Under the pieces are notes generated by a model. That model was not told the DNA's origin. It saw only the letters and a program-made list of their open reading frames with translations, and made no database searches. This document shows, in pieces, positions 43,614 through 63,701 of a stretch of DNA of 64,000 bases. Each line of letters begins with the position of its first letter. Position 1 is the stretch's first letter. Origin of the DNA: Malacoraja senta (taxonomy: Eukaryota); NCBI GenBank assembly GCA_038087875.1, contig CM075993.1:6450001-6514000 (forward strand). The letters are read 5' to 3'. The position numbers were made by a program, and so were the translations under genes.

Positions 43614-43981
43614 TCAGTGCAGAACCTGACAAAGGGCTATCACCAAGACAGAATAGAAAGCAACACTGGACACGTATACAGTGGAGGCACTGTTGCCCTG
43701 AATGTTGTAACTAGCATGTAATTGTTCAACGCCCTTTTCATAGGAAAAGCATTTGTACGAGCCAACTTTATCTTCAGTAAATTGTGTTATGAGGAGCAAA
43801 CAATTATCGTCATTGGAGGAACAGGGCAGCTCCTTCTCTCCCTCGTTGAACTTCCACGTGTAATCTGCGTGGTAGGATTGCTTCGGGCAGGAGAGGTACA
43901 CAGGGATGTCTTCATTCAGGGGCAAGCGGAGAACCGTCTTACCGGATTGAGGCCTTGGGGCCGAGGAACGTGACATCGCAG
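43614..43981 (-). CDS. SEMA7A: SEMA7A-like terminal coding exon: Ig domain plus GPI-anchor signal
   Basis: cctag|(A)AMSRSS...VYLSCPKQSYHADYTW...GSYKC...GNSASTVYVSSVAFYSVLVIALCQVLH*; hydrophobic C-terminus with no cytoplasmic tail, typical of class 7. Confidence 0.92.
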
Positions 43982-45800
43982 CTAGGAGGATGAAGACAGA
44001 GATCGTTAGTTGGCACGAGACCAAAGGAAGTGCAGATGCTGAAATCTTGAGGCAAACACAAAATGGTGGAGGGACTGAACCAGTCAGGCAGCTTCTTTAG
44101 TTTAGTTTAGTTTAGCTTAGTTTAGAGATACAGCGCGGTAACAGGCCCACCAGAGTCCACGCCGACCAGCGATCCCCACTCATTAACACTATCCTACACA
44201 CACCAGGGACAATTTTACACTTATACCAAGCCAATTAACCTACAAACCTGTATGTCATTGGAGTGTGGGAGGAAACCGAAGATCTCGGAGAAAACCCACG
44301 CAGGTCACGGGGAGAACGTGCAAACTCCGTACAGCACCCGTAGTCGGGATCGAACCCGGGTCTCTGGCGCTGTGAGGCAGCAACTCTACCGCTGAGCCAC
44401 ACTTTAGAGGGAAATGGCCAGATACCGTTTCGGGTTGGGATCCTTCTTCAGACTCTAGTTTAGTTTAGTTTAGAGATAAAGGGATTAAGGGCGGGACGGT
44501 GGTGCAGCGGTAGAGTTGCTGGCTAATAAAGTATGATTATGATTATGATTTAGGAAGGGGATGAGGAGGAATTTCTTTAGCCAGAGGGTGGTGAATCTGT
44601 GGAATTCATTGCCGCAGAAGGCTGTGGAGGCCAAGTCAATGGATATTTTTAAGACAGAGATAGATAGTTTTTTGATTAGTATGGGGGTCTGGGGTTATGG
44701 GGAGGAGAGATGGGGTTAGAGTAGATCAGCCATGATTGAATGGCCTAATTCTGCTCCTATCACTAATTCATCTTATGAAACTCTTGTCCCTATTTTTTCC
44801 CTTCTTGCAGAAAGAGGAAGTCAGTCTCACGTCCTCACTTAGAAACAAAATTACAGAGCTAAGGGATTTTAAAAATAGACTATCCTCCCTTTAAAGACAG
44901 GGACTTTGTTTGGACATATCTGATCATATACTGTCCCAGTGGCTGTAAAAGGTCCCAGTGACACATCCTAACAACACAACCTCCATGGCATTCATGCCAA
45001 GTGCTGTAGGTCTGAAGTGACGAGTATCGATCCGGTCTACAGGTGCTGTCTCTGTGGAGTTTGTACATTCCACTCGTGACCTGTGTGGGTTTTCTCCGGG
45101 TGCTCCAGTTTCCTCCCACTCTCCTAAGACATGCAGGTTTGTAGGTTAATTGGCTTGGTATAATTGTAAATAGTCCCGAGTGTGTGTAGAATCGTGTTAG
45201 TGTGCGGGGATCACTGGTCAGGGCGAAGGGCCTGTTTCTGCTCTGTCTCTCTTAACTAAACTAAAGTAAAGGAAGTTTACCAGAATGTTGCCTGGATTAG
45301 AGCGTATTAGCTTCAAGCTGAGGTTGGACCGACTTGGATTGCTTTCTCTGGAACGCAGGGGGTCGCTGGATGGAAGTATTTAACACTATGAGAGGCATAG
45401 ATATGGTAGACAGTCAGAACCTTTTATCCCAGGATGGAAAAATCAAATACTAGAGAGCACAGGTTTAAGGTGAGAGGGGAAAAGTTCAAAGGAGATGTGG
45501 GGGGCAACTTTTTCCGAACACAGAGGGTGGTGGGTGCCTGGAACGCACCGCCAGGGTGGGTGGTTGAGGCAGATACAATAGTGGCGTTTAAGAGACTTAT
45601 GGTTAGGCATAATGGATATGCAAGGAATGGAGGGACATGGATGTCTAGGTAGAGAGAAGATGGTCTTAGCATCATGTTTGGCACAGACGTAGTGGGCTGA
45701 AGGGCCTGTTCTTGTGCTGCACTGTTCTATGTTTTAACTGAACCTGTGAGCAGTGGAGTAAAACCATGCATTATATGAACATGTTTCAAAGCGACCTTAC

Positions 45801-45850
45801 CTTCGTTGGTGAAACAGCCATCACCACTAGTGAGATTCTGAACGACTTTC
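45801..45850 (-). CDS. SEMA7A: SEMA7A-like coding exon (~exon 13)
   Basis: tcacag|(K)[16 protein letters not shown]|gtaagg; 50 bp, phase 2/1, bridges the neighbouring exons in frame. Confidence 0.82.
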
Positions 45851-46394
45851 CTGTGAACAGAAATGAAATGTCTATGTTGGAAATGTGTGTACACGCACAC
45901 AGGTACATGCACGCACGCACACGCACACACACGTGCACACACACACACACGCACGCACACGCACACACACGCGCACACACACGCACACGCACACGCACAC
46001 GCACACACTGAACTTGTTTCTCTCATTTATTGTATTGTTTACAGAGTACTATGATCACAGATTGTGTTGTGCTGTTGAATGCAGAACTGCATTGTTCTAT
46101 CTGGGACAGTTGACAATAAAACGCTGGACTCCTGAATCTTGAACGACTGAACCCAATTAATGCAGCACAATCCAACCAGGTGAAAATCACCAGACAGCGC
46201 GTCTCAACGACACGAGATGAAGGACAGAGGTGGGACAACCCGTCCTTAACGGACAATCCGCTGTGACGTGTTTAACGGCCAGTTGCCAGAACGTACAGGG
46301 CGGTGAATGAACCACTTGGAGGGTGGACAGGTCTAGCAAGGCAGCGCCCCCTCAGTACTTCACTGGAGCTTGTCTGGGTTTCATGCAGAGGACA

Positions 46395-46489
46395 GGGGTG
46401 GGAGATTGCAACCTTCACGTGGTCCGTCCAATCAAATAGAACAAGTTGTCCCACAACTTTCGGCTGTGCACGCCACACGCAAGAAGAAG
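46395..46489 (+). mobile_element. Second copy of the HDV-headed retroposon, internally deleted, in a SEMA7A intron
   Basis: ggggtgggagattgcaaccttcacgtggtccg...(aag)n; degenerate TSD atgcagaggaca / atgcggagaacg. Confidence 0.75.
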
Positions 46490-46527
46490 ATGCGGAGAAC
46501 GGAAAGAAACTAAAATGACAGACTCAC

Positions 46528-46688
46528 TTTGAATTAGGTATGACGGCGACACACTTCTTGTGGTCGTTATCCCATCCACAGTAAGGGTCTCTGGCCTGGA
46601 CACAACCTGGACACGAATCAACATATTCCTCACACGCAACCAGTGGGAACCGAACCAGCTCCATGGTCGAAGTGACGTACAGAAGTTT
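46528..46688 (-). CDS. SEMA7A: SEMA7A-like coding exon (~exon 12), PSI domain
   Basis: ttctag|KLLYVTSTMELVRFPLVACEEYVDSCPGCVQARDPYCGWDNDHKKCVAVIPNS|gtgagt; 161 bp; CxxC..RDPYCGW; not captured in the ORF track. Confidence 0.95.
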
Positions 46689-48003
46689 CTAGAAAGAAAA
46701 AGTGTTTTTTTAATAATGATTATTTTCAATGTTTTTCAATGAACATTAAATACAGGAAAATATTTCTAGAATTTTTCTGGAAATATTTTATTATTAATAA
46801 AGTATTTCTGAAAGTATTTTATTAATATATATTAATAAAACATAAGTATTGGAACATAATTCCAGACAATGCTGCAAATAAATACCAATAGTTAATTTAG
46901 TTTAGTTCGGTTTAGAGATACAGGGCAGAAACAGGCCCTTCGGCCCACCGAGTCCGCGCCGACCAGCGATCCCCGCACACTAACACTATCCTACACACAC
47001 TAGGGACAATTTTCATTTATACCAAGCCAATTAACCTACAAACCTGCAGGTCTTTGGAGTGTGGGAGGAAACCGAAGATCTCGGAGAAAACCCACGCAGG
47101 TCACGGGGAGAACGTACAAACTCCGTACAGGCAGCACCCGTAGTCAGGATTGAACCTGGTTCTCTGGCGCTGTAAGGCAGCAACTCTACCGCTGTGCCAC
47201 CTTGCCGCCCATAAAGGGTTTAATGTCTTTTTTTAAATGATTATTATTTTCAATGTTTTTCTATCAACATGAAGTATGGGAATTATTTCTGGTCACTGCT
47301 AGTAATGAATACTATGGGAAAATATTTGTGCTCAATGCTAATGAAAGGAAAATATTTCTGGTCAATTTTATTATGAGTAATAATTATAGGGAATATTTCT
47401 GGTCATTGATATCAATAAACATTTATTGCAGGAAAATAATCTCCGATACTTAGTCTTTTTTAATACCGAAAATCCGAGCGGTCACGGGGAGAACGTACAA
47501 CTCCGTACAGACAGCACCCGTAGTCAGGATCGAACCTGGGTCTCTGGCGCTGTAAGGCAGCAACTCCACCGCTGTGCCACCATGCCGCCCTGGGAAATTA
47601 TTTCTGATCGATGGTATTAATAACTAATAAGTATGGGAAAACATTCCCGGTCAATGCTTTAAAAAAATAATATATAATGGGAAGATAGACACATAATGCT
47701 GGAGTAACTCAGCGGGACAGGCAGCATCTCTGGAGAGAAGGAACAGATATCGTCTCGGGTCGAGCCGATACGTCACCCATTCCTTCTCTCCAGAGATGCT
47801 GCCTGTCCCGCTGAGTTACTCCAGCATTTTGTGTCTATCTTTGATTTAAACCAGCATCTGCAGTTCTTTCCTACACACTAAATAAAGGGAAGATTATTAC
47901 AGCCAAATGTATTAATAAATAATTATAGGAACATATTTTTGGTCATTGGTTCTACTGATTATCATTTCCAGGTCAGAGGGTGACCATTGACCTTTGAACT
48001 TAC

Positions 48004-48119
48004 CCTGTCAGAGTCGAGGGATAAGGATAAGATGGGAGCAGGTTTCTTCAAAACAGTAAGCTGCGCTATGGTGAAGGTGGAATTAGCAGTCTCAAGAACC
48101 TTGTGGATTGTACCGTCTC
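48004..48119 (-). CDS. SEMA7A: SEMA7A-like coding exon (~exon 11)
   Basis: ccacag|(G)DGTIHKVLETANSTFTIAQLTVLKKPAPILSLSLDSDR|gtaagt; 116 bp; GTIHKV motif as in human SEMA7A. Confidence 0.92.
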
Positions 48120-48879
48120 CTGTGGGGTGAAGAAGATTGGCCAGGGTTATAGAGAGGTGAGAACATTCACCATCCTCATACAAGGCATTCCACAGCGGTT
48201 GGCAATAAGGTTAGAGATCACAGCTCAAACATCTCGGAGGAACACTGCCCTAGGTTCATGTTCATAAATGATAGGAGCAGGATTAGACCCTTTCGGCCCA
48301 TCAAGTCTACTCCGCCATTCAATCATGGCTGATCTACCTCCCCTCCTAACCCCATTCTCCTGCCTTCTCCCCACAACCTCTGATACCCGTACTAACCAAG
48401 AATCTATCTATCTCTGCCTTAAATATACCCATTGGCTTGGCCCCCACAGCCTTCTGTGGCAATGAATTCCACAGATTCACCACCCAACAGCTGTCAGGGC
48501 CCATTCGGCCCATCAAGTCTACTCCGCCATTCAATCATGGCTGATCTATCTCTCCCTCCTAACCTCTGACACACGTACTAATCAAGATTTGCTGATTTGC
48601 ATTATGGAACAGTAACCATTAGTTAGCCAAGTAAGCCTCTCTTGCCTGATCTGTGACCTGGTAAATGATGTTAGAGAGATACAACATTGTGTGCAGTTTT
48701 GGTCTCCTAGTTTGAGGAAGGAAGTTCTTGCTATTGAGGGAGTGCAGCGTAGGTTCACCAGGTTAATTCCCGGGATGGCGGGACTGACATATGGGGTGCT
48801 GGCTCAAAGGACCGAATGGCCTGCTTCTACACCTATTTTCTATGTTTCTAATGTGTATCAACTGGCTATCAGCACCTAC

Positions 48880-49075
48880 CCATGGCTAGGATCAGCAGCC
48901 GGTTCAGCTCTCCCTTCGGACCAACAACGGAATCCACGATTATCTTCTTGATGTGTGGCTCATAACTGGTCATGAGTGGACGGTTTCCGATGGGATGAAT
49001 CCAATCCACCATTTCAGGATGATTCTCTACAAGAGTGAGCACTTCATCCGGCAATTCCTTTGTGTTTTTGACACA
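48880..49075 (-). CDS. SEMA7A: SEMA7A-like coding exon (~exon 10)
   Basis: ccgcag|CVKNTKELPDEVLTLVENHPEMVDWIHP...LLILAM-G|gtaggt; 196 bp. Confidence 0.92.
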
Positions 49076-49359
49076 CTGCGGTGAAGAGGGAGCAATAACA
49101 GAAAGCAAGTTATTTGCCAGTCCAATGTGCTTCAGTGCCAAAGGCAAATGATCAGTGAGTACCAGATTCAGGAACAGCTTCTTCCCCTCTGTTACCAGAC
49201 TTCAAACGGAATCAGGGAATCAGAGGAGAAAGCGGGAACGGGGTCCTGATTCTGGATGATCAGCCATGATCATATTGAACGGCGGCGCTGGCTCGATGGG
49301 CCGAATGGCCTACGCCTGCAACTATGTTTCTATGTTTCTATCCACCCGTGATTCCTCAC

Positions 49360-49471
49360 CGTGCCTGGTCTTGGGTTACTGGGAACAGGGCCATTGGAGT
49401 CCTTAAAGGCAGAAGTTGCAAAGACTTTACTAATCTCCTTCATGGAGTAAACACACATGGCTGTTCCATTC
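49360..49471 (-). CDS. SEMA7A: SEMA7A-like coding exon (~exon 9)
   Basis: tttcag|(W)NGTAMCVYSMKEISKVFATSAFKDSNGPVPSNPRPGT|gtgagg; 112 bp; PRPG motif. Confidence 0.93.
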
Positions 49472-49542
49472 CTGAAAAACAAAAGACACCACATTAGATC
49501 GGTGTTCAGCGTGTGGAAGAGAACTGGAACAAAGTGTATTAC

Positions 49543-49860
49543 TTGGAGGAACAGCACCTCATATTTCGCTTGGGCAGCTTACACACCAGCGGTATGAACA
49601 TTGACTTCTCTAACTTCAAGTAGCCCTTGCTTTCCCTCTCTCTCCATCCCCTTCCCCTTCCCAGTTCTCCCACCAGTCCTACTGTCTCCGACTACATTCT
49701 ATCTCCGTCCCACCCACTCCCCTGACATCAGTCTGAAGAAGGGTCTCGACCCAAAACGTCACCCATTCCTTCTCTCCAGAGATGCTGCCTGTCCCGCTGT
49801 TACTCCAGCATTTTGTGTCCATCTTCGATTTAAACCAGCACCTGCAGTTCTTTCCTACAC
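49543..49860 (+). mobile_element. Penelope-like element 3' end: GIY-YIG C-terminus plus pseudo-LTR with hammerhead motif; similar piece at 19050-19235
   Basis: LEEQHLIFRLGSLHTSGMNIDFSNFK* followed by ctgaagaagggtctcgacccaaaacgtc and the common gatgctgcctgtcccgctg repeat. Confidence 0.75.
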
Positions 49861-50714
49861 AAAGTGTATCACTTCTCCTGCTCAGCAATGAAATCCATGC
49901 TCTCTCTCTGAATGACCTTGGATGCATTGTTATCTGATACGAATCATCTGTATGTCGATGAATACCATCTTGAAATTCTACCGTAGTGGCTGCTCAGCGG
50001 TGAGAGGCGGCACGGTGGCACAACGGTAGAGTTGCTGCCTTCCACCGCCAGAGACCTGGGTTCGATCCTGACTAGGGGTGCTGTCTGCACGGAGTTTGTA
50101 TGAGTGGGTTTTCTGCAGGTGTTCCGGTTTCCTCCCACACTCCAAAGACATGCAGGTTTGTCGGTTAGTTGGCTTCGGTAAAATTGTACTTTGTCCCTTG
50201 TGTGTAGGTTTGAGCTCGTGAGCGCTAACGTGATCGTGTTTCCACGCAGTATCGCTAAGGTCTAAAGTCGGAGTACTTTAGGGATTGATGGAACAGTTTT
50301 CAATATGTTGTCATGGTCATAAGATCAACCACGTTAGTTTAGTTTCGGGTTTAGTTTAGTTTAGAGATACAGTGCAGAAACTGGCTCTTCGGCCCATGGA
50401 GTCCACGCCAACCTGTGATCTCCCGCACACTAACACTATCCAACACACACTAGGGACAATTTACAATGTTACCAAGCCAATTAACCTACAAACCTGTACG
50501 TCTTTGGAGTGTGGGAGGAAACCGAACCACATACACACACGTACTATTGGAAGATGTCGGAGAAAGCCCATGCAGGTCACGGGGAGAACGCACAAACTCT
50601 GTACAGACAGCACCTGTAGCCATGATCAAACCCAGGTCTCTGGCTCTGTAAGGCAGCAACTCTACCGCTGCGCCACCGTGCCTCCCACTTGTCCTGCATT
50701 TCCTGTGGACTCAC

Positions 50715-50893
50715 CAATTACTGCTAAACACGCCGTAGACCCTTGTTTCATCGTCAACGGGCGACTTGTAAATGAAGGTGTCTTCAATCTTGTTGAAGTG
50801 GACTTTGTTGGCCGGCTCGTTACAGAGCAGGCGGGCTTTGAGGAAGGTCGACCACTTCATCTGCAGTCGTTTCCGAGATCCACCATGGTCATT
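50715..50893 (-). CDS. SEMA7A: SEMA7A-like coding exon (~exon 8)
   Basis: ccacag|NDHGGSRKRLQMKWSTFLKARLLC...ETRVYGVFSSNW|gtgagt; 179 bp; hallmark KWxTFLKAxLxC motif. Confidence 0.95.
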
Positions 50894-52244
50894 CTGTGGA
50901 GACAAGAGATCAGAGTCCATGACGTCCCACACAAAGGGTTCTGAGGGTGTACGGAACGAGCTGCCAGAGGAGGTCGTTAAGGCACGGACCATCCCAACGT
51001 TGAAGAAACAGTTAGACAGGTACATGGATAGGGCAGGTTTGGAGGGATATGGACCAAACGCAGGCAGGTGGGACTAATGTAGCTGGGACATGTTGGCTGA
51101 TGTGGGCAAGTTGTGTCGAAGGGCCTGTTTCCACGCTGTGTCACTCTATGACTGTAGGGCATGGACATTTAGCCCAGGAAAGGTGGGATGGAGAGTCTCT
51201 TCCCATCAGGAGGCCTGGATAGAGCGTATGTTTTGGTCACCATGTTATAGGAAAGATGCAGTCTAGCTTGAAAGGCTTCAGAGAAGATTTGTCAGGATGT
51301 TGCCAGGACCCGAGGACTGAGCTAGTTGGAGAGGTTGAGCAGGGTAGGATTCTATTCCTTGGAGCGCTGGAGGATGAGGTGTGATCTTATGGAGGTGTAG
51401 AAAATCATGAGAGGAATAGATCGGGTAAACGCACATCCTTTTGCCAGTGTAGTGGAATCAAGAACCAGAGGACATAGGTTTAAGGTGAATGGGGAGGAGG
51501 GGTGAGGAGAAAGAATTAATGGGAACCTGAGGGGTAACTTTTTTTACACAAAGGGTGGTGGGAATATGCAATGAGCTGTCAGGGGAGGTATTGAAGCAGG
51601 GACTATCTCAACATATGAGACAATTAGACAGGTATGTGTATAAGGTAGGTTTAGAGCGATATGGGTCAAAAGCAGGCAGGTGGGGCTAATGTAGATGGGG
51701 CATGTTGTTCGGTGTGGGAAAGTTGGGCTGAAGGGCCTATTTCCAAGCTGTATGACTCAATGAAGAGAGGATGTTTCCAATAGTGGGAGAGTCTGGGACC
51801 AGACGGCACAGCCTCAGAATAAGAAGACGTATCTGTCAAAAGGAGACGAGGAGGAATATTTCATTGGCCAGAAGAAGGTAAATCTGTGTAATTCATTGTC
51901 ACAGACAGCTGTGGAGGCCAAGTCATTGGGTATTTTTAAAGCGGAGATTGATAGGTTCTTGAGGAAAGATAGATCGGCCATGAGCAAATGTTGGAGTAGA
52001 CTCAATGGCCAAAAGGCTTATTTCTGTTCCGATGTCTTTATAGGACTGGGTCACGGCATCTTGTTCAGTCCAGAAATTGTGTGTGGAAGGGTGTGGTCTT
52101 ATGCTATACTGTTCTATTTCTAGGCAAGGACTTTACGATGAGATGAGCGACCACACAGTGTAAACACACAGTGTTGATGGTGATAGATGGAGAAGGATTC
52201 ACAATCTAACTGGAACGGGCAGAAAACCAGGCCCCAGCGTGGAA

Positions 52245-53467
52245 GTCACACTCACCTTACACAACTCGGGGAAGGTGACACACTCGCCTTTACACACTCA
52301 GGCAAGGTGACACTCACCTTTCAAACCCAGGCAAGGTGACACAACCACCTTACACACTCAGAGACGGAGGCACACTCAGGGTTGGGGACATACCCACCTC
52401 ACACACTCAGGCAGGGAGACACACTCACCTTACACACTTGATGCAGAGGTCACACTCACCATGTACACTCAGGCAAGGAGACACACCGAGCACACTCAGG
52501 AAAAAAGACGCGAGTACCTTACACACTCAGGTGAGGAGACACGCCCACCTTGCACATCTGTGCAAGGAGACACATCTTACACACTCAGGCAAAGAGGCAC
52601 GCCCACCTTACACATACAAGGAGAGACACACCATACACACACAGCCACGGGGGCACACTCACCTTACATACTCAGTCATGGGCACACACCTTACACAGGG
52701 AAGGATACACACCCACCGCACACACTCAGTGAAGGACACACCCATCTTACACAATTGGGAAAGGTGGCACACCCACATTACACACAGGCAATGAGACACA
52801 CCCACCTTACACACTCGGACAAGGACACACCCACTTTACGCGCTTGGGCAAGACATGCTCATCTACCTTGCACACTTGGAGAAGGGGACACACCCACCTT
52901 GCACACTCAGGGAAGGGGACACACCCACCTTGCACACTCGGGGAAGGGGACACACCCACCTTGCACACTCGGGGAAGGGGACACACCCACCTTGCACACT
53001 CAGGGAAGGGGACACACCCACCTTGCACACTCGGGGAAGGGGACACACCCACCTTGCACACTTGGGAAAGGGGACACACCCACCTTGCACACTCGGGGAA
53101 GGGGACACACCCACCTTGCACACTTGGGAAAGGGGACACACCCACCTTGCACACTCGGGGAAGGGGACACACCCACCTTGCACACTTGGGAAAGGGGACA
53201 CACCCACCTTGCACACTCGGGGAAGAGGACACACCCACCTTGCACACTTGGGAAAGGGGACACACCCACCTTGCACACTCGGGGAAGGGGACACACCCAC
53301 CTTGCACACTTGGGAAAGGGGACACACCCACCTTGCACACTCGGGGAAGGGGACACACCACCTTGCACACTTGGGAAAGGGGACACACCCACCTTGCACA
53401 CTCGGGGAAGGGGACACACCACCTTGCACACTCGGGGAAGGGGACACACCCACCTTGCACACTCGGG
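52245..53467. repeat. 31-bp minisatellite: 20 near-identical units at 52866-53467, degenerate units at 52245-52865
   Basis: Unit ccttgcacactcggggaaggggacacaccca; two 30-bp variants; alternating tcgggg/ttggga higher-order pattern. Confidence 0.97.
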
Positions 53468-53575
53468 CGATGTGGGAAATCCATGGATCAACATCAGGAT
53501 CGTTCTGTGAATTCCTTTCTCGGAAGAACATGTAAATCAGGTCTCCCACCGGAGACATTCCCACAAAACTGGGAT
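53454..53575 (-). CDS. SEMA7A: SEMA7A-like coding exon (~exon 7)
   Basis: ttcag|(D)PSFVGMSPVGDLIYMFFRERNSQNDPDVDPWISHIARVCK|gtgggt; 122 bp; Sema-domain IYxFFRE...SxxAxxC motif. Confidence 0.92.
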
Positions 53576-54510
53576 CTGAAGGGAAGGAAGCAGGAATACA
53601 GATCATTGGTGCGGTGAACGCTGGGAGAGGAGGGTCTGGTGAGGACCAGGGAACTTAGTTCAGTTTAGCGATACAGTGTAGAAACAGGCCCTTCAGCCCA
53701 CCGAGTCCGGGCCGACCAACAATCTCCCGTGCACTAGCGCTATCCTATCCTTACAGAGGCCACTTAAGCTAGAAACCCTCACGTCTTTGGAGTGCGGGAG
53801 GAAACTGGAGCACCCGGAGAAAACCCACATGGACACAGAGAGAACGTGCAAACTCCTTACAGGCAGCACCCGTAACCAGGATCGAACCCGGGTCTCAGGC
53901 GCTGTAAGGCAGCAACTCTACCGCTACGCTGCCCAAGGAAGTGCAGATTCTGGTTTACTAAAAAAGACCCAAAGTGCTGGAGCAACTCAGCGGGTTAGAC
54001 AGCATCTATGGAGAACATGGTAAGGTGAGGTCTGAAGAGGGGTCCCGACCCAAAACGTCACCTATTTATGTTCTGCAGAGATGCTGCCTGACCCGCTGAG
54101 TTACTCCAGCACTTTGTGCCTTTTTTTTTTGTAAACCAGCATCCGCAGTTCCTTGTTTCTGTAAATATGGAAAGGCCACATTTCAGGTCAGGACCCTTCT
54201 TCAGGTCTTCAATGAGAACCTGCATTTATATAGTGCCTTTCGTCAACTCAAAAGGCACTATATAACGCTTCAAACCTCCGTGTATACTTGTTGTATGGGA
54301 AATGCGATGGTTTACCGATGAGGAAGTCCAGTTGCATCATCTGCACCCAAAAGGTCTACTGACCAATTCCCTTCTCAGATGCTCTCTGACCTGCTGAGTT
54401 CCTCCAGCACCGTTCCCCTATTTTGCTGGTATTTTGGTAATATCTAACTTGCAAAGATTTCCAACCGCTCTGAAGCACGCGTTTGCATTTCTCGAATTCT
54501 TTGTGACTAA

Positions 54511-54926
54511 AGGGCCTGTCCCACTTGCATGCGATTGCGTGCGTAGTTCACGCGAAGTTCGCGCTAAGTACGCGCTAACTTTGTGCGTGACGTCATTTAC
54601 ATTATGCTTATCAATCAGCTGGGCAGGAGGCGGGCCGACTGAATTTGGGCGTCGCACGGCGTCGGGCAGTGACGTCATCACACAATGCCATGCCGGGCGG
54701 TGACGTCCTCACGCAACGCCACGCGCTAGGCATACGCCGTCAAGATGCTGCGTACGACGTCAAGACGCTGCGTACGACCGCAATGCGCCTGCGTGCCGAC
54801 AGCCCCGTACAACTCCGCGCTTCTAAGTGGGACTGGCCCCGCGCGGCCATACGGTGCCTGTACGCCTCAAGCGATCACGAGGTTGCGTAATTTGCGAGCC
54901 AAGGTTGCGTAAGTGGGACAGGCCCT
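54511..54926. mobile_element. PIF/Harbinger-like MITE, 416 bp, CpG-rich
   Basis: TIR agggcctgtcccactt; TSD TAA/TAA; extra internal TIR-like copy at 54824-54840. Confidence 0.88.
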
Positions 54927-55459
54927 TAACGATCTGGCTAACAATGAGCCCTTTCAATCTGAGCAACTCAGCGGGGCAGTTAACATCTCTGGAGAAAAGG
55001 ATCCAGTCTGAATAAGGGTCTCGACCCAAAACATCGCCTATTCCTTTTCTCCAGAAATGCTGCCTGACCCGCTGGGTGTATGGAACAAGCTGCCAGAGGA
55101 GGTAGTTGAGGCTGGGACTATCCCAACATTTAAGGAACAGTTAGACAGTTACACGGATAGGACAGGTTTGGAGGGATATGGACCAAACACAGGCAGGTGA
55201 GACTCGTGTTGCTGGGACATTTTGGCCAGTGTGGACCAGTTGGGCCGAAGGGCCTGTTTCCACACTGTATCACTCTGTGACTCAATGTCTCTGTATGCAG
55301 TTCCTTCTTTCACATGAAACTTAAGTCCTTGGTTCAGAAGTGAAGGGGCTGTCCCACTTGGGCAACCTAATCAGCGATTTCAGGCGAGTTTGCCCTTGAC
55401 TCATACTCGGAGCATGGTCGACACGAGGTTGTAGGAGGTCTTTGTAACTCTCCTTCATG

Positions 55460-56235
55460 CTCCATGGAGGAAATCCCCCATGGAGCCCGTGGACAGCGCA
55501 TAGTCCCTTTCCAAAACCACCCGGGCGCGGACGTAACCCCGGAAAAGGGGCAGGCTGCCGGCTCTGGCAGAGCCCTCTTCCGCCTGGCGCCGTGACTCGC
55601 GGATGGCCAGCTTGGCCAGGCCCAGGAGCAACCCAACCAGGACATCTTCAGCCCTACCCTCTTCCCTACGCACAGGGTGTCCAAAGATGAGGATGGTGGG
55701 TGGGAAATGCAGCCAGAAGGCAAGGAGCAGCCCCTTTCGATATTGGAACAGGGGCTGCAGCCTCACACACTCCACATACACGTGGTACACAGACTCTTCC
55801 AACCCGCAAAAGTGGCAGGCGGCTGGCGAGTCTGTGAACCGCGAGAGAAACAGGTTGCAGGGAACACCTCGGTGCAATAACCTCCACCCCAGGTCCCCAA
55901 TGTAGAGGGGGAGAATCCCTGCGTAGAGGGACCCCCACCGGGGGCCCCCTCGTGACCGGAAGGCAACACCGACTTGGTGTCCGGACGGTGGACCAGGGCG
56001 AGGAAGTGCAGGGTGTGGAGGAGGAGCCCGTACAGGACACGCCTCCCTGCGTCTCGGAGGGAGATGAACGGGGCCGAGGAAAGGTGGCTCAAGTAGTGCG
56101 GGACCGGGTCCTGGGAAGGATTATGGCGCCTGGATCCGACGAGTACTTCCAGCTGAGCGGGGGTTTGCTCACGCGTTCGAGCCTCCCCGACACCCGGTGG
56201 GGCGGGACAAGGGCTGGCCGCTCTCACGACCGGTG
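55460..56235 (-). mobile_element. Tx1-like LINE ORF2 C-terminal fragment; 3' end of the same family at 13019-13310
   Basis: GC-rich; CHFCGLEESVYHVYVECVRL zinc knuckle, LLLGLAKLAI; shares cccgtggacagcg.tagtccct with 13228-13250. Confidence 0.75.
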
Positions 56236-57711
56236 GAGGGGAATATATTCCCTTGATGGTGAGGCGGTCAGTACCTGTGATGGACCAGGCAGTGTCCACC
56301 ACTCTCTGTAATCTCCTTTGTTCCTGGGCATCCGAGTTGTCAAACCAAGTTGTGGTGCAACCAGTCACGATGGTCTCTATTGAACAGCTGAGCTACAGTT
56401 GATCAACAACAGCAACAGGCTAGGGCGGTCACGGTGGCGCAGCGGTACAGTGCCGGATACACGGGTTCGATCCCGACTACGGGTGCTGTCTGTACGGAGT
56501 TTGTACGTTCCCCCCGTGACCGCGTGGGTTTTCTCCGAGATCTTCAGTTTCCTCCCACACTCCAAAGACGTACAGGTTTGCAGGTAAATGTCAAAATTGT
56601 CCCTGGAGTGTGTGGGATAGTGTTAATGTGCGGGGATCGCTGGTCGGTATGGACTTGGTGGGCCGAAGGGACTGTTTCAGCCCTACATCTCTAAACTAAA
56701 TTGAGTTCATCCAAGATGACATAATGTGTGGTCTTCCCCATGTGGGACTGACGTCCGGTGCTAACCCTCACAGCTCCGTGGCAATGAATTATCTGAAGCT
56801 TTTAACAGCCGAGCCTTGGTTGTCTCAGGTTTGGTTCCATTCCAGCTGAAATTCTTTGTCCATAGATATGTTTCGACAGACTTCCTCTTAGTGGAAGAAA
56901 CTGAACCATGACAGTTCCTTAACAATAAATCGACTACAAGTGAAGGCGTGTTTCGATTCCTGCTACATTAGTGAGTTTTGGAGAACCCCAGTCACCAGCT
57001 TATTCTGCACAAAGAGCAGCCGGAAGTTGAGTTTAGTTTTAATTTAGTTTAGAGAAACAGCGTGGAAACAAGCCCTTCAGCCCACCGAGTCCGCACCGAC
57101 CAGCGATCCCCGCACATTAACACTATCCTACATACACTAGGGACAATTTACACATACACCAGGCCAATTCACCTACAAACCTGTACGTCTTTGGAGTGTG
57201 GGAGGAAACGGAAGATCTCGGAGAAAACCCACGCAGGTCACGGGGAGAACGTACAAACTCCGTACAGACAGCATCCGTAGCCGGGATCGAACCCGGGTCT
57301 CCGGCGCTGCAAGCGGTGTAAGGCAGCAACTCTACCGCTGTTACACCAAGGCTCTGTACAACTGCAAAAGGACCTCTTTGCTCCTATACTCAAATTCTCT
57401 CGTTATGCACGTCAACATGCCAATAGCTTTCTTCACTGCCTACTGTACCTGCATTCTTACTTTCAGTGACTGATGTACAAGGACACCCAGGTCTCGTTGC
57501 ACTTCCCCTTTTCTTAATCTGACACCATTCAGATAATAATCTGCCTTCCCGTTCTTGCCACCAAAGTGGATAACCTCACATTTATCCACATTAAACTGCA
57601 TCTGCCATGCATCTGCCCACTCACGCAACCTATCCAAGTCACCCTGCATCCTCAAAGCATCCTCTTCACAATTCACACTGCCACCCAGCTTTGTGTCATC
57701 TGCAAATTTGG

Positions 57712-60700
57712 ATGTCTTGAACATACCAATTTATTATTCTTAAAGTCACATACACTGAAGTTCACTGATCTGGTTAAATTTAAGACTGAGCAAATCATGT
57801 ACAAAGCAAGAAATAATTTACTTCCAAGAAATATACAAAAACTGTTTATGGAAAGACAGGGTGGGTATAATTTGAGAGGGGAACATAATTTTAAAAAACT
57901 CAATGTCAGAACAACTCTTAAAAGTAGGTGCATAGCAATCTGTGGGGTGAATTTGTGGAATGGTCTGCAACAGGAGATAAAACTTAGCACAAACATAATT
58001 CAGTTTAAAAAGATGTCCAAAGACACTTTTTTTAAAGGATATTGGGATGAGGATAGGTGATTGTGAGTGGGATATTTGTTATACTGATTGTATTGGGAAG
58101 GGTGATTATAGGGTGATGGGTTGTATATATGACTAAGAGATTATAGTATATGAGGGTTTTTTCTTTTCTTTTTTCTTTTTTTCTCTCTTTTTTGTATGTT
58201 TTGGTAAATATTTGATTAGTGTATAAATGTAAATAATTTGGTGTACATATGGCTGCTGGTGTACATATGGTGTACATATAGCTGCTAAATCTGTATAAGA
58301 TAATTATTATTATTATTTTAAAAAAAATTATTTATTAGAAGTACATTACATTACAACCGCATACATTAGTACTCGTCATTTATATCTTCTTACAATTAAT
58401 GTACTCCATTTATTTTTTACACTAGAAAAGGAAAAGATTGAAAGAAAGAAGAAAGTGAAGGAAAAAGTGAGAGTGTAGAAAATGTGACAACAAAAAAGGA
58501 CAAAGACCCTATAAGAGCAAAATTAAAAACAAAAGACAAAGAGTTAAGAAATAGACCCTAGAAAAGAAAGAGAAAGAGAAAGAGGAAAAAGAGAGAAACA
58601 AATATTTTTTTGAGCATTACGTAAATGGGACATACCAACTCTTCAACTAGCATCCCCCCTTACCTGACCTCAATTTTTTTTTTTAAGTACTTTTGCACCC
58701 TATTTTTGTAATAATTCTATAAATGCAGACCACGTCAGGTGGAAATGATCTGGTTTACCTGCTAGGAGGAGTCTTATCTCTTCTAGGTGTAATGTTTCAA
58801 ACATATTTGAAATCCACATATTTATAGTTGGTATTGGAGCCTTCTTCCAAAATTTTAGAATTAGCTTTTTTCCAGTTATTAACCCATAGTCCATTAGTTT
58901 CTTTTGAAACACATTTAGTTCTGGACCATCTTCCGTTATTCCGAAGATAAACCATTCTGCTTTGGGTATCAGTCTTGTTTTAAATAACTTTGTAAAGATT
59001 TCAAAAATGTCATTCCAAAATTTTTGAATTTTTGTACAGAAAACGTATGAGTGCGCTATAGTAGCTTCTTGGGATTGACATTTATCACAAATAGATGATA
59101 CATTTGGGAAAATTTTATGAATTGTAGTTTTCGAATAATATAATCTATGTAAAATTTTAAATTGTATTAAAGTATGTCTTACATTAATCGAGCATTTATG
59201 CACGTTTAATAAGTGTTCATTCCAACTTTCCTTTGAAATTTTAATAGCTAACTCTTGTTCCCAGTCTCTTCTGATACCCTCCGTAGATGGTATTTGTACA
59301 TTTAAGATAATATTATACAAATATGATATTAAGTTTGCTGACTCCGCTTTTATCTGCATTGCCTCGTTCAATACATCTACTGGGTTATTATAATGATCTT
59401 TTGTATATTTTTTCAAATAATCGCATATTTGAAAATATTTAAAATATTGATTATTTCCGAGTTTATATTTTATTTGTAATTGTTGAAATGAAAGTAATTT
59501 TCCAGTTTCATACAAGTCACCAAGCGTTTTAATTCCTAGTCTATCCCAATGTGTAAAAGCTTTATCTATAATAGAAGGATTAAACGAAGGGTTATTAACT
59601 ATAGGTAATAAAAGTGATAAATTTCTTAATTTTAAATTTTGTTTTATTTGTTTCCAAATTCGGATTGTACTATGAATAATTGGGTTCTTATTATAATTTA
59701 TGTTATTCAATTTCATTGGAGAAAGGAGGATCACTCCAATGTTTCTAGAGGAGCAATCCTCTTTCTCCATTACAATCCAGTCCACTTGCTGGGCGGAGTT
59801 ATCCATCAGTTGAATCATATTTTTAATATTTACTGACCAATAATAATACATAAAGTTAGGTAGTGCTAAACCCCCTAATACTTTAGGTTTATTCAGATGA
59901 GTTTTTTGTATTCTATGTGATTTATAGTCCCATATAAAATTAGTGATATCTGAGTCGAGTTTTAAAAAAAACTTCTTTGGTAAGTATATAGGAATTGATT
60001 GAAATAGGTATAAAATTTGTGGTAGAAAGATCATTTTTATTGCATTTATTCGGCCTATTAAAGACATCGGGAGCGTTTTCCAGAATTTAATTAGTGTGTT
60101 TAATTTATTAAGTAGGGGGTCAAAATTTGCCCTAAACATACCTTGATATGTTCTGGTAATTTCGATTCCCAAGTATTTAAATTTTTCTGTAGCTATTTTA
60201 AAAGGGAATTTTAAAAGATGTGTTGAATCTTTCAGTTTTATTGACATAATTTCACTTTTATTCCAATTTATTCTATATCCAGAAAAAGATCCAAAGTCTT
60301 CAATTAAATTTAATATATTTGGTATAGTGATTTGAGGTTTTGTAATGTACAGTAATATATCATCCGCGTATAAAGATATTTTATTATATGAGTCTTTAGT
60401 ATTATATCCATGGATATCAGGGTGTATTCTAATTCTTTCTGCTAGTGGTTCAATAATGAGAGCAAACAGCTGTGGTGATAATGAGCATCCTTGTCTATTT
60501 CCCCTTGATAGTTGGAATTTCGAGGATAATATGTTATTAGTTAGTATTCTAGCTGTACGTTTGTTATATAGTAATTTGATCCATAGAATAAAATTCTCCC
60601 CCAATTGAATTTTTGTAATACTTTGTCCATATAATTCCATTCTACTTGATCAAATGCTTTTTCAGCATCCAGTGAAATAATTGATAATTCTTGTTCTTCA

Positions 60701-60985
60701 GATTTGTGTGAGTGCATTATGTTGAGTAGACGTCTTATATTGTTAGATGAATATTGTATAAGATAATTATAAGCAGTTGAATAAGGGATGGGAATTAATA
60801 AGCTTTGGCTTCTTCCTGCTCCTTTTCGGACACATACGATTTCATTTATTTAGATATTGTTTATGACACTTTATAAATATTCATGTTTTGTTTTTTGTAT
60901 GCTGTTTCACACTTGCTTTTTATTCTTTTATTCTGTTCGAAATAAATAAATAAATAAATAAATAGATAAATAAATAAATAAGATT
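57712..60985 (+). mobile_element. L2/Crack-like LINE 3' end (57712-58307 plus 60755-60985) split by L1
   Basis: EHTNLLF...IMYKARNNLLP..IQKLF...YNLRG...GVNLWN...QFKK; (aaat)n tail. Confidence 0.7.
58308..60754 (-). mobile_element. L1-clade LINE ORF2 3' half, 5'-truncated, 16-bp TSD
   Basis: SLDAEKAFD, RGNRQGCSLSP, YADD, FKYLG, C-terminal Cys knuckle; 646-codon open frame; TSD tgtataagataattat at 58292-58307 and 60755-60770. Confidence 0.93.
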
Positions 60986-61713
60986 AGCCAATGTTACTTT
61001 TAATTCCTTTATCCAAATCATTAATATATATTGTGAATAGCTGCAGTCCCAGCACCGAGCCTTGCGGCACCCCACAAGTCACCACCTGCCATTCTGAAAG
61101 GGAACTGTTAATTCCTACTCTTTGCTTCCTGTCTGCCATCCAGTTCTCTATTCATGTCAATACCCTAACCCCAATACCATGTGCTCTAATTTTGCCCACT
61201 AATCTCCTGGGACCTTGTCAAAGGCTTTCTGAAAGTCCAGGTACACTCCATCCACTGTCTCTCCCTTATCCATTTTACTTGTCACAGTAAACTCCATGAA
61301 ATTTTTGTTTTAACACATAGAAGGGTGGCCCAATGGTGCTTGTCTGTACAGAGTTTGTACGTTCTCCCCGTGACCACGTGGGTTTTCTCCGGGAGCTCTG
61401 GTTTCCTCACACATTCTAAAGACGTGCAGGTTTGTAGGTAAATTGACTTGGCATGATTGTAAATTGTCCCGAGTGTGTGTAGGATAGTGTGCGTGCGGGG
61501 ATCGCTGGTCGGCGCGGACTCGGTGGGCTGTAGGGCTTGTTTCCGCGCTGTATCTCTAAACTAAATTGAACTAAAATTGTTTCCTTAATTCTTTCATTCA
61601 TTACGGTCTCTCGTTTGTAGGAAGATAAACAGGTCAGGTCACGCGGTGAAGAGTTTGGGGGAGGGGGGACGATGCGTGCTGGAGGAGAGTGGGGATTGGA
61701 ACTTCACGCTTAC

Positions 61714-61824
61714 CGTTCATCCACCTGCTATCAGTTTTTAGCCGCTTGATGTCATCTTTCTTCCTGTAGCCACTGAATGCCAGCTTGTCCCCATCAAGAG
61801 GGGCCGCAGAGTAGATCCTCTGGT
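61714..61824 (-). CDS. SEMA7A: SEMA7A-like coding exon (~exon 6)
   Basis: ctgcag|(D)QRIYSAAPLDGDKLAFSGYRKKDDIKRLKTDSRWMN|gtaagc; 111 bp, phase 1/1. Confidence 0.87.
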
Positions 61825-61911
61825 CTGCAGGGCAAGATAAAAGCACACACACACTCAGTAGATTGCCCCTGGAACTGACGTAATGTTTATTGATGTTGCA
61901 AAGGTACTTAC

Positions 61912-62014
61912 CAACAACTAAAGACGCAAAGCCTTGTCGTGGAGGACTGGGGAGGACATATTGTCCCAAAACACGGTTCTGTCCATTGATAAATGTCACC
62001 AACTCACCGTTATG
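61912..62014 (-). CDS. SEMA7A: SEMA7A-like coding exon (~exon 5)
   Basis: ttacag|HNGELVTFINGQNRVLGQYVLPSPPRQGFASLVV-G|gtaagt; 103 bp, ends phase 1. Confidence 0.85.
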
Positions 62015-63602
62015 CTGTAAAAGAAAGTAGTTTGATGGTTTTACCATTTAAATTTGATGGCCTTGCCTCTTTTCATTGACCAATAGACTCTGTGAGACGG
62101 CAACACTTTGAGTGCTCAGGTCTCGACCCAAAACGTCACCCATTCCTTCTCTCCAGAGATACTGCCTGACCCATTGAGTTACCCCAGCATTTTGAGTCTA
62201 TCTTCCTTTCTACACATTTCCTCGTTTAGTTTAATTTAGAGACACAGCGCGGAAACAAGCTCTTCGTCCCACCATGTCCCCGTCGACCAGCGATCCCCGC
62301 ACACTAACATTATCCTATACGCACTAGGAACGATTTACAATTATACCAAAGCCAATTAACCTACAAACCGGCTCGTCTTTGGAGGGTGGGAGGAAACCGG
62401 AGCTCCAGGAGAAAACTCACCCAGGTTACGGGGAGAACGTACAAACTCTGTACAGACAACACCTGTAGTTGGAATCGAACCTGTGTCTCTGGCGCTGTAA
62501 GGCAGCAACTCTAACGCTGCGCCACCATGCCACCCTAAAATGCATATGGCGGGCATAGACTCAATGGGTCAAATGGCCTTTTTCCAATGTGCAACCTTTG
62601 TGAATGTAATGTTCTTGGGTTAACTCCTCATCTTTAAACAGTGGCCAGGCCAGTAAATGGTGAGTTTGCTTGATCTCTGTGCGAAGATTTCCTGTAACTG
62701 GGTTTCCTGTCTTCAAACAAATGTCGCCTGAAATCGCATTCTCGGAAATGGTGCAGTCTTTGTGAGTAAGTGAGAGATGAAACGTCGTCAGACATTTCAG
62801 AGACTACGTCAATAGTGTATATCCGTTCAAATTGTTGCAAACAGGGTTAATAATGTACCCAGCAAAACACAAAGTGCTGGAGGAACTCAGCTGGTCAGGC
62901 AGCATCTGTGGAGGGAACAGACTGACGATGTTTCGGGTCGGGACACTTCTTCAGACTGAAGTCGTTCTTCAGAACATTGAAGAAGTTCTCCCCCTCAGTC
63001 TGAAAAAGGGTCCCGAACCAAAACGTCACCAGCCCATTCTCTCCACAGATGCTGCCTGACTCACTGAGGTCATAAGTTCATGAGTGATAGGAGTAGAATT
63101 AGGCCATTCGGCTCATCAATTCTACTCTGCCATTCAATCATAGCTGATCTATCTCTCCCTCCTAACACCATTCTCCTGACTTCTCCCCATAACCCCTGAC
63201 ACCCGTACTAATCAATAATCCATCTATCTCTGCCTTAAAAAATATCCATCGTCTTGGCCTCCACAGCCTTCTGTGGCAATGAATCCCACAGATTCACCAC
63301 ACTCTGGCTAAAGAAATTCCTGCTCATCTCCTTCCTAAAGGAACGTCCTTTAATTCGGAGACAATGGCCTCTGGTCCTAGACTCTGCCACCAGTGGAGAC
63401 ATCCTCTCCACATCCACACTATCCAGGCCTTTCACTATGCCTCCAGCACTTTGAGTTTTATCTCAAGATTTCAGTGTCTGCAGCATCTTGCGTCTCCATG
63501 GTAATATTGCCACCATCTTGTTTCCATCTGCCTCCCCAAAACTTTAAGGTGTAAAGCACGATTCATATAAAGAAGTTGCAGAATTAGTCCACAGTTACTT
63601 AC

Positions 63603-63701
63603 CAACAGCCAGCATCGTGAGTTGGGCGAGTCAGTTGCACACACTAGGTGGTGACTTGTATTGAACCTCTGCAGGACCATGATATAATTCCCACAGGAAT
63701 C
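63603..63701 (-). CDS. SEMA7A: SEMA7A-like coding exon (equivalent to human exon 4), first exon in window
   Basis: ttccag|DSCGNYIMVLQRFNTSHHLVCATDSPNSRCWLL|gtaagt; 99 bp, phase 0/0; resembles human DCENYITLL...LLACGTNARHPSCWNL. Confidence 0.88.

Follow-up and report, generated by a model that had tools for sequence, protein, structure and literature searches.

A minisatellite of about 41 copies of a 31-bp unit, made of the end of an exon and the beginning of the intron behind it, adjoins a Sema-domain exon of a SEMA7A-like gene in the skate Malacoraja senta. It lies in the window, that is, the whole stretch of 64,000 nucleotides that was analysed (GenBank assembly GCA_038087875.1, contig CM075993.1, positions 6,450,001 to 6,514,000 of the forward strand); coordinates are those of the window unless a contig position is named. 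The explanation that we favour, with a probability of roughly 0.78, is that the array is a locus-specific minisatellite derived from the junction, that the exon is spliced at its first donor, and that the copies of the donor are silent and subject to neutral drift. The arrangement belongs to a class of repeats that has already been described, and the skate locus is one more example of it.

The host gene, referred to here as copy A, is read on the minus strand (Table 1), and its exons are numbered throughout after human SEMA7A, on which the exon beside the array is 'exon 7'. Exons 3-14 can be joined by way of GT-AG introns into a single open frame of 553 amino acids, the product of which is 82% identical to the skate SEMA7A-like protein P0008. 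The named proteins nearest to it are semaphorin-7A-like ones from two skates, Amblyraja radiata and Leucoraja erinacea (Rajidae), at 86% across one exon, and when P0008 was compared with the PDB the best match was SEMA7A (E 2.3e-85), followed by SEMA3A (2.4e-61). PF01403 was recognised in one exon with 45.2 bits and PF01437 is precomputed in homologs, while Ig matches in the host gene fell below the Pfam cut-off and the product has, as judged by eye, a short hydrophobic end. Class 7 semaphorins carry PSI and Ig domains and a GPI-type hydrophobic tail, without a cytoplasmic part. On these sequence comparisons the host, which the original prediction had named SEMA7A, is best described as SEMA7A-like, its Sema domain being closest to that of SEMA7A. 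For copy A, exons 1-2 could not be located between exon 3 and an assembly gap some 14 kb further upstream; this gap, at contig positions 6528692-6528891, lies between exon 3 of copy A and a second copy of the gene.

Table 1. Features of the host gene and of the array, in window coordinates
Feature	Position	Strand	Remarks
Host gene (copy A), exons 4-14	43614..63701	-	exon 3 just outside the window
Sema-domain exon, 122 nt	53454..53575	-	ends in the ARVCK codons
Next exon (acceptor partner), 179 nt	50715..50893	-	starts NDHGG; acceptor at 50893
Authentic donor, AAG/GTGGGT	53448..53456	-	8/9 matches to MAG/GURAGU
Young block, 19 units of 30-31 bp	52878..53464	-	mean identity to the junction unit 97%
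Old block, 22 degenerate units	52239..52877	-	units 20-40 average 73% identity
First and third decoys, AAG/GTGGTG	53356..53425	-	one G lost in each (donor G at 53422 and 53361); 6/9 matches
TAG closing the exon's frame	52863..52865	-	196 codons into the array; contained by every exon that extends to a donor past +587

The array was divided by our own segmentation of positions 53464-52239 into 41 units, the first of which (unit 0) consists of the final 11 exon bases and the initial 20 intron bases, with the boundary at the donor G, 53453. Tandem Repeats Finder reported a period of 31 and 36.4 copies over 52371-53468, and a 62-bp dimer period in the young part (52707-53467). When the young block is ordered from donor to donor by unit type it reads ABCBCACDCACACAEAAEF, an order that shows dimer duplications. 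A search of the 1.94-Gb genome for an exact 22-mer spanning the junction gave 19 matches, 17 of them in the array of copy A and two in that of its paralog (copy B), and the reversed 22-mer, which served as a control, has no match genome-wide; the likeness of the array to the junction is not due to chance. Copies of an exon end were found for just one of the 24 exon ends of the host gene. That the unit is an amplified exon-intron junction, as had been proposed at the outset, is thus supported by a unit 0 that spans the boundary and by a 22-mer confined to the two gene copies. With its boundary-spanning monomer, reiterated donor, restriction to one locus and derivation from the host, the array is a junction-spanning minisatellite of the type known from intron 7 of F7, also termed a 'mirage'.

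One could suppose instead that the array arrived from elsewhere, as a dispersed satellite or part of a mobile element, and that it resembles the junction through insertion or coincidence. Dispersed repeats abound in the region and the unit is GT-rich and simple, as this would lead one to expect, but the confinement of the exact 22-mer to the two gene copies, the fact that the exon part of the unit encodes RVCK, which is conserved in ray and shark homologs, and the match of the majority tail of the old units to further exon bases make an external origin extremely improbable.

It had also been claimed that the homogeneity of the units decays with distance from the exon. There is indeed a drop, but it is a single step: the identity of units 0-18 shows no trend along the young block (rho 0.22, p 0.36), and units 20-40 are likewise trendless (rho 0.13, p 0.58). 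A smooth polar decay was therefore given up in favour of two blocks, since neither shows an internal trend. The expansion at the exon-proximal end that the decay was meant to demonstrate is better established by the paralog. Copy B (exons 2-11; contig 6530376-6568040) lies about 37 kb upstream, past the assembly gap, and is frameshifted in three exons (8, 9 and 10). Its array has 28 units as against 41 in copy A; its old block is nearly unit-for-unit the same, yet it has only two units of the young type. Because the paralog holds the old block without the roughly 17 young units, recent growth sits beside the exon, and we infer that copy A gained these units once the two copies had split, with the true donor on one side of them and the old block on the other. 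The alternative is that units were lost from copy B. The paralog thereby dates the expansion and places the growth beside the exon.

Copy B might be taken for an uncollapsed second haplotype, a reading prompted by the intervening assembly gap and by the difference of about 1% in the flanks near the exon. It is the less likely one, given a divergence of 13.8% in exon 5 and of 11.2% in exon 10, together with the frameshifts in three exons. The DNA run X1 contains the A and B forms at depths of 51 and 47.8, which fits a paralog or a haplotype. Divergence between the copies is patchy, at about 1% beside exon 7 and 2-5% in most exons, with exons 5 and 10 standing out, and may reflect gene conversion or fast protein change. 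The old arrays of A and B differ by 6.3% and by 10 gap events, compared with 0.8-1.3% in the adjacent flanks, as is expected of a repeat in turnover. At contig 6583405-6593161, behind an assembly gap, exons 13 and 14 recur in inverted orientation, with the last exon open; copy B may have its 3' end here, assembled in the wrong direction.

The old block also bears on the founding unit. The majority tail of its units matches the eight exon bases that precede unit 0 at 7/8 positions in copy B and 5/8 in copy A, so that about 19 exon bases may have been present in the founding unit. Single old tails match these eight bases at only 4.7-4.8 positions on average, whereas young tails match at 5.8; this counts against such a founding unit, yet it is to be expected of decayed copies. 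The history that we propose begins with a 31-bp piece (about 19 exon and 12 intron bases), from which the old block would have grown by duplication and amplification while the gene was still single; later, and in copy A only, slippage or unequal exchange would have inserted some 17 units behind the true donor and ahead of the old block.

An attempt to read polymorphism from the depths of contigs in a second DNA run, X2 (44.6 for the pure unit, 13.4 for a variant and 6.4 for the AAG variant), was abandoned because the cover was too low and the repeats were collapsed. The k-mer means of the assembly (7.9 pure, 2.3 CCCT, 5.2 AAG) stand in proportions unlike those of the X2 contigs. As the contigs of X1 and X2 both collapse the repeat, they give no allele lengths.

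The amplification has carried the donor along with the exon end. Donor strength was taken as the number of matches to MAG/GURAGU (the slash marks the exon-intron boundary), a consensus set out in PMC1557585. The 11 donors of the host gene have match scores of 6-8, so that the true donor of the exon is not weak. Behind it, at +31 to +587, come 19 decoys, 16 of them AAG/GTGGGT, two AAG/GTGGTG and one AAG/GTAGAT; the 19 near-identical decoys of the original prediction are thus all accounted for, as is the loss of a G that it had noticed in the first and third, which is present in the assembly. Equally, the computed consequences agree with what had been foreseen: five of the 19 decoys (+153, +246, +339, +432 and +525) keep the frame, with predicted insertions of 51-175 amino acids that include 6-22 cysteines, and the remaining 14 shift the frame, which puts a stop 780 or 812 nt ahead of the last exon junction. 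Nonsense-mediated decay (NMD) of such frameshifted products is expected by the 50-nt rule. The distal units of better consensus that had been pointed out do exist, as four AAG/GTGAGT sites in the old block (+791, +1025, +1136 and +1198; donor G at 52662, 52428, 52317 and 52255), but the in-frame TAG at 52865-52863 precedes all four of them, and the use of any one of them would create an exon of 913-1320 nt. Secondary structure that might mask the decoys was sought, and nothing beyond chance was found (z = +1.01; 170 of 200 shuffles fold equally well).

Much had been made of the reading frame that stays open across the array (ORF 52863..53606). The frame is open, but this means little: the unit lacks a stop triplet, all six frames of the array are open for 150-381 codons, and the openness is therefore automatic and no sign of selection, while the ATG of the ORF, at 53606, falls in the upstream intron. 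The ORF was rejected as a mark of selection also because stop-free units are common, being found in 45% of 20,000 shuffles of the unit. A Pfam search with the array ORF returned one weak match below the cut-off (DUF4644, E 0.019), which was disregarded, and of the six other pieces that were searched two had no match.

Arrays of this architecture are known from mammals, and the following account draws on PMC1557585 (Borensztajn et al. 2006). Human F7 contains in intron 7 a VNTR of 5-9 units of 37 bp, the first monomer of which lies across the exon-intron boundary, and splicing takes place at the most upstream donor only. In F7 minigenes pseudo-sites with CV values of up to 91 were noncompetitive, whereas perfect CAG/gtgagt pseudo-sites engineered into the gene captured 70-90% of splicing. 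The minisatellites of LMNB2 and PDGF are likewise spliced at the first donor alone, while intron 2 of IFI6 (6-16), with 25 pseudo-sites, and intron 13 of CBS, with a VNTR of 15-20 units of 31 bp, each use two pseudo-sites beside the true donor. The skate array resembles that of F7 in its boundary-spanning first monomer, in its identical 5' pseudo-sites, in the intronic hexamer gtgggt, and in having some pseudo-sites in frame. It differs in size and history, having about 41 units of 31 bp with at least 11 exon bases and two age layers, compared with 5-9 units and four exon bases in F7; moreover, polymorphism and first-donor use have been demonstrated for F7, whereas support in the skate is indirect. 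With CBS, IFI6, LMNB2 and PDGF it shares the architecture, and with CBS also the length of the unit, but the genes are unrelated and the origins independent, and in contrast to CBS and IFI6 no pseudo-site was seen to be used in the contigs and proteins examined. Outside the vertebrates, PMC3087553 describes 'mirages' in amphioxus Adh3 and in the globins BflGb6 and BflGb9, where exon-intron boundaries are duplicated in tandem and regular splicing is undisturbed. The skate array is like these in its reiterated splice signals, concerted evolution, divergent ends and tandem boundary duplication; the cephalochordate arrays differ in having units of 10-160 bp, in affecting acceptor as well as donor sides, and in that length instability has been shown for them. 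A literature search found no paper on the skate SEMA7A locus. By analogy with F7, the skate exon would be held at 122 nt by exon definition and by a bias towards whichever of several identical donors lies furthest upstream.

The use of the donor was followed in public sequencing runs. Of 24 runs, four (X1, X2, X21 and X22) were chosen for alignment to window positions 53385-53700; three of the 24 were guessed to be RNA, all from other organisms, with X21 and X22 representing two related species, which may lack the young block. The RNA label of these two is a guess (X21 is given as 'probably DNA'), and rare forms are lost from assembled contigs such as these. The X21 contig of 2299 nt (depth 53.4) aligned to 53453-53576 only, and the X22 contig of 710 nt (depth 36) was confined to the same interval; the upstream intron at 53583-53637 was uncovered in both, as against a depth of 67 in the DNA run X1. 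In X21 the exon is flanked by 831 and 1344 letters, lengths that fit a whole mRNA because 618 coding bases lie upstream (in P0008) and 1182 downstream (in copy A). As these long contigs are confined to the exon and the upstream intron is uncovered, the exon appears to have been left at its first donor in both RNA-like runs, and we infer that it is joined in them to the next exon.

Homologous proteins point the same way. In all 11 that were compared, VCK is joined directly to xDxGGS without an insertion, though the array may be absent from those species; two of the 11 are ORFs from Logan contigs of 1.7 and 2.2 kb, which are likely to be spliced transcripts. A protein search with the exon plus 82 array codons gave four matches among 305 candidates, none with more than 39% query cover, which is weak evidence. 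The suggestion that the array could tune splicing or NMD is consequently not supported: the open frame carries no signal, the long contigs appear to use the first donor, the 11 proteins are free of insertions, and in F7 splicing is restricted to the most upstream donor.

A leakier junction, in which the decoys at +61, +122 and +153 take a minor share of splicing that ends mostly in NMD, so that the number and type of units slightly lower output, is the form that such tuning would take. The true donor's 9-mer recurs in 16 of the 19 young decoys, IFI6 and CBS show that two pseudo-sites can be used in such arrays, and PMC10078293 reports that the length of tandem repeats commonly alters splicing in humans (spl-TR). 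X21 moreover contains at least three short array-like contigs (53, 85 and 80 nt at depths of 10.2, 8.2 and 4.5, on 53385-53464). These suggest that the array is also present in that species, and they may represent carry-over of multi-copy DNA, pre-mRNA, or transcripts that run into the array; among the matches listed, none is linked to the exon or to anything downstream, nor does any contig join a decoy to sequence outside the array. The long contigs run unbroken past the first donor, no protein bearing an insertion was found either in the 305-candidate search or among the 11 homologs, and the nearest decoy is weakened. On balance such leakage is unlikely, though minor use of nearby decoys may occur, as in IFI6 and CBS. 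If the first-donor reading is adopted, rare use of a decoy would mostly lead to a premature stop and NMD (14 of the 19 young decoys and all old ones), and use of an in-frame decoy would give a Cys-rich insert of 51-175 amino acids that would probably misfold the Sema domain.

The weakening of the first and third decoys invites a further explanation, which overlaps with leakage, namely that selection promoted the loss of the G because the closest rivals of the true donor are thereby silenced. Within units 1-18 the donor 9-mer is changed only in these two decoys, the paralog, too, has a changed first decoy (AAG/GTGGGC, within a 26-bp unit), and the reference list of the F7 paper includes a title according to which a substitution in the second repeat of CBS prevents multiple alternate splicing. 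However, both G-lost decoys sit in a repeated 61-bp BC dimer and so are likely to be one event copied once, for which the chance of such a placement is, by our estimate, about 1 in 10. The X1 and X2 DNA contigs that align at that place all carry the G (depths 21.7/21.7 and 58/58), so that we may be dealing with a private variant or with an error of the assembly, although collapsed repeats weaken this comparison, and the altered decoy of the paralog belongs to a frameshifted copy. Selection on the two decoys is on this evidence improbable.

The most far-reaching proposal is that the young block is an active dosage dial, in which the decoys from +61 to +153 would divert a share of transcripts that depends on copy number to NMD or to a Cys-rich insert in the position that corresponds to the RGD motif of human SEMA7A, the nearest decoys having been weakened by selection so as to limit the leak. 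This is improbable; if it were true, the locus and its short-array paralog would form a natural paired experiment on how donor arrays tune a gene. Under first-donor splicing with silent copies, the short- and long-array versions of one junction offer a test, in a cartilaginous fish, of the first-donor rule known from mammals, and the locus would matter more only if the use of decoys rose with copy number.

The amplified junction (53454/50893) coincides with the RGD site of human SEMA7A, although the motif itself is absent from the skates: human CRGD aligns with CKDD in P0008 and with CK/ND in the window gene. A literature search on burial of the RGD motif found nothing.

Other observations concern the remainder of the gene. 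The tail of the Amblyraja model P0001 matches read-through into the intron after exon 13 (45730-45800), and P0002 terminates with the last exon read out of frame, while the Logan ORFs P0007 and P0008 are complete; the ends of P0001 and P0002 are either an annotation artefact or a short secreted form. In intron 6, an open frame of 649 amino acids on the minus strand (58700-60649), with an 89% similar stretch in copy B, looks by eye like a fragment of a LINE reverse transcriptase.
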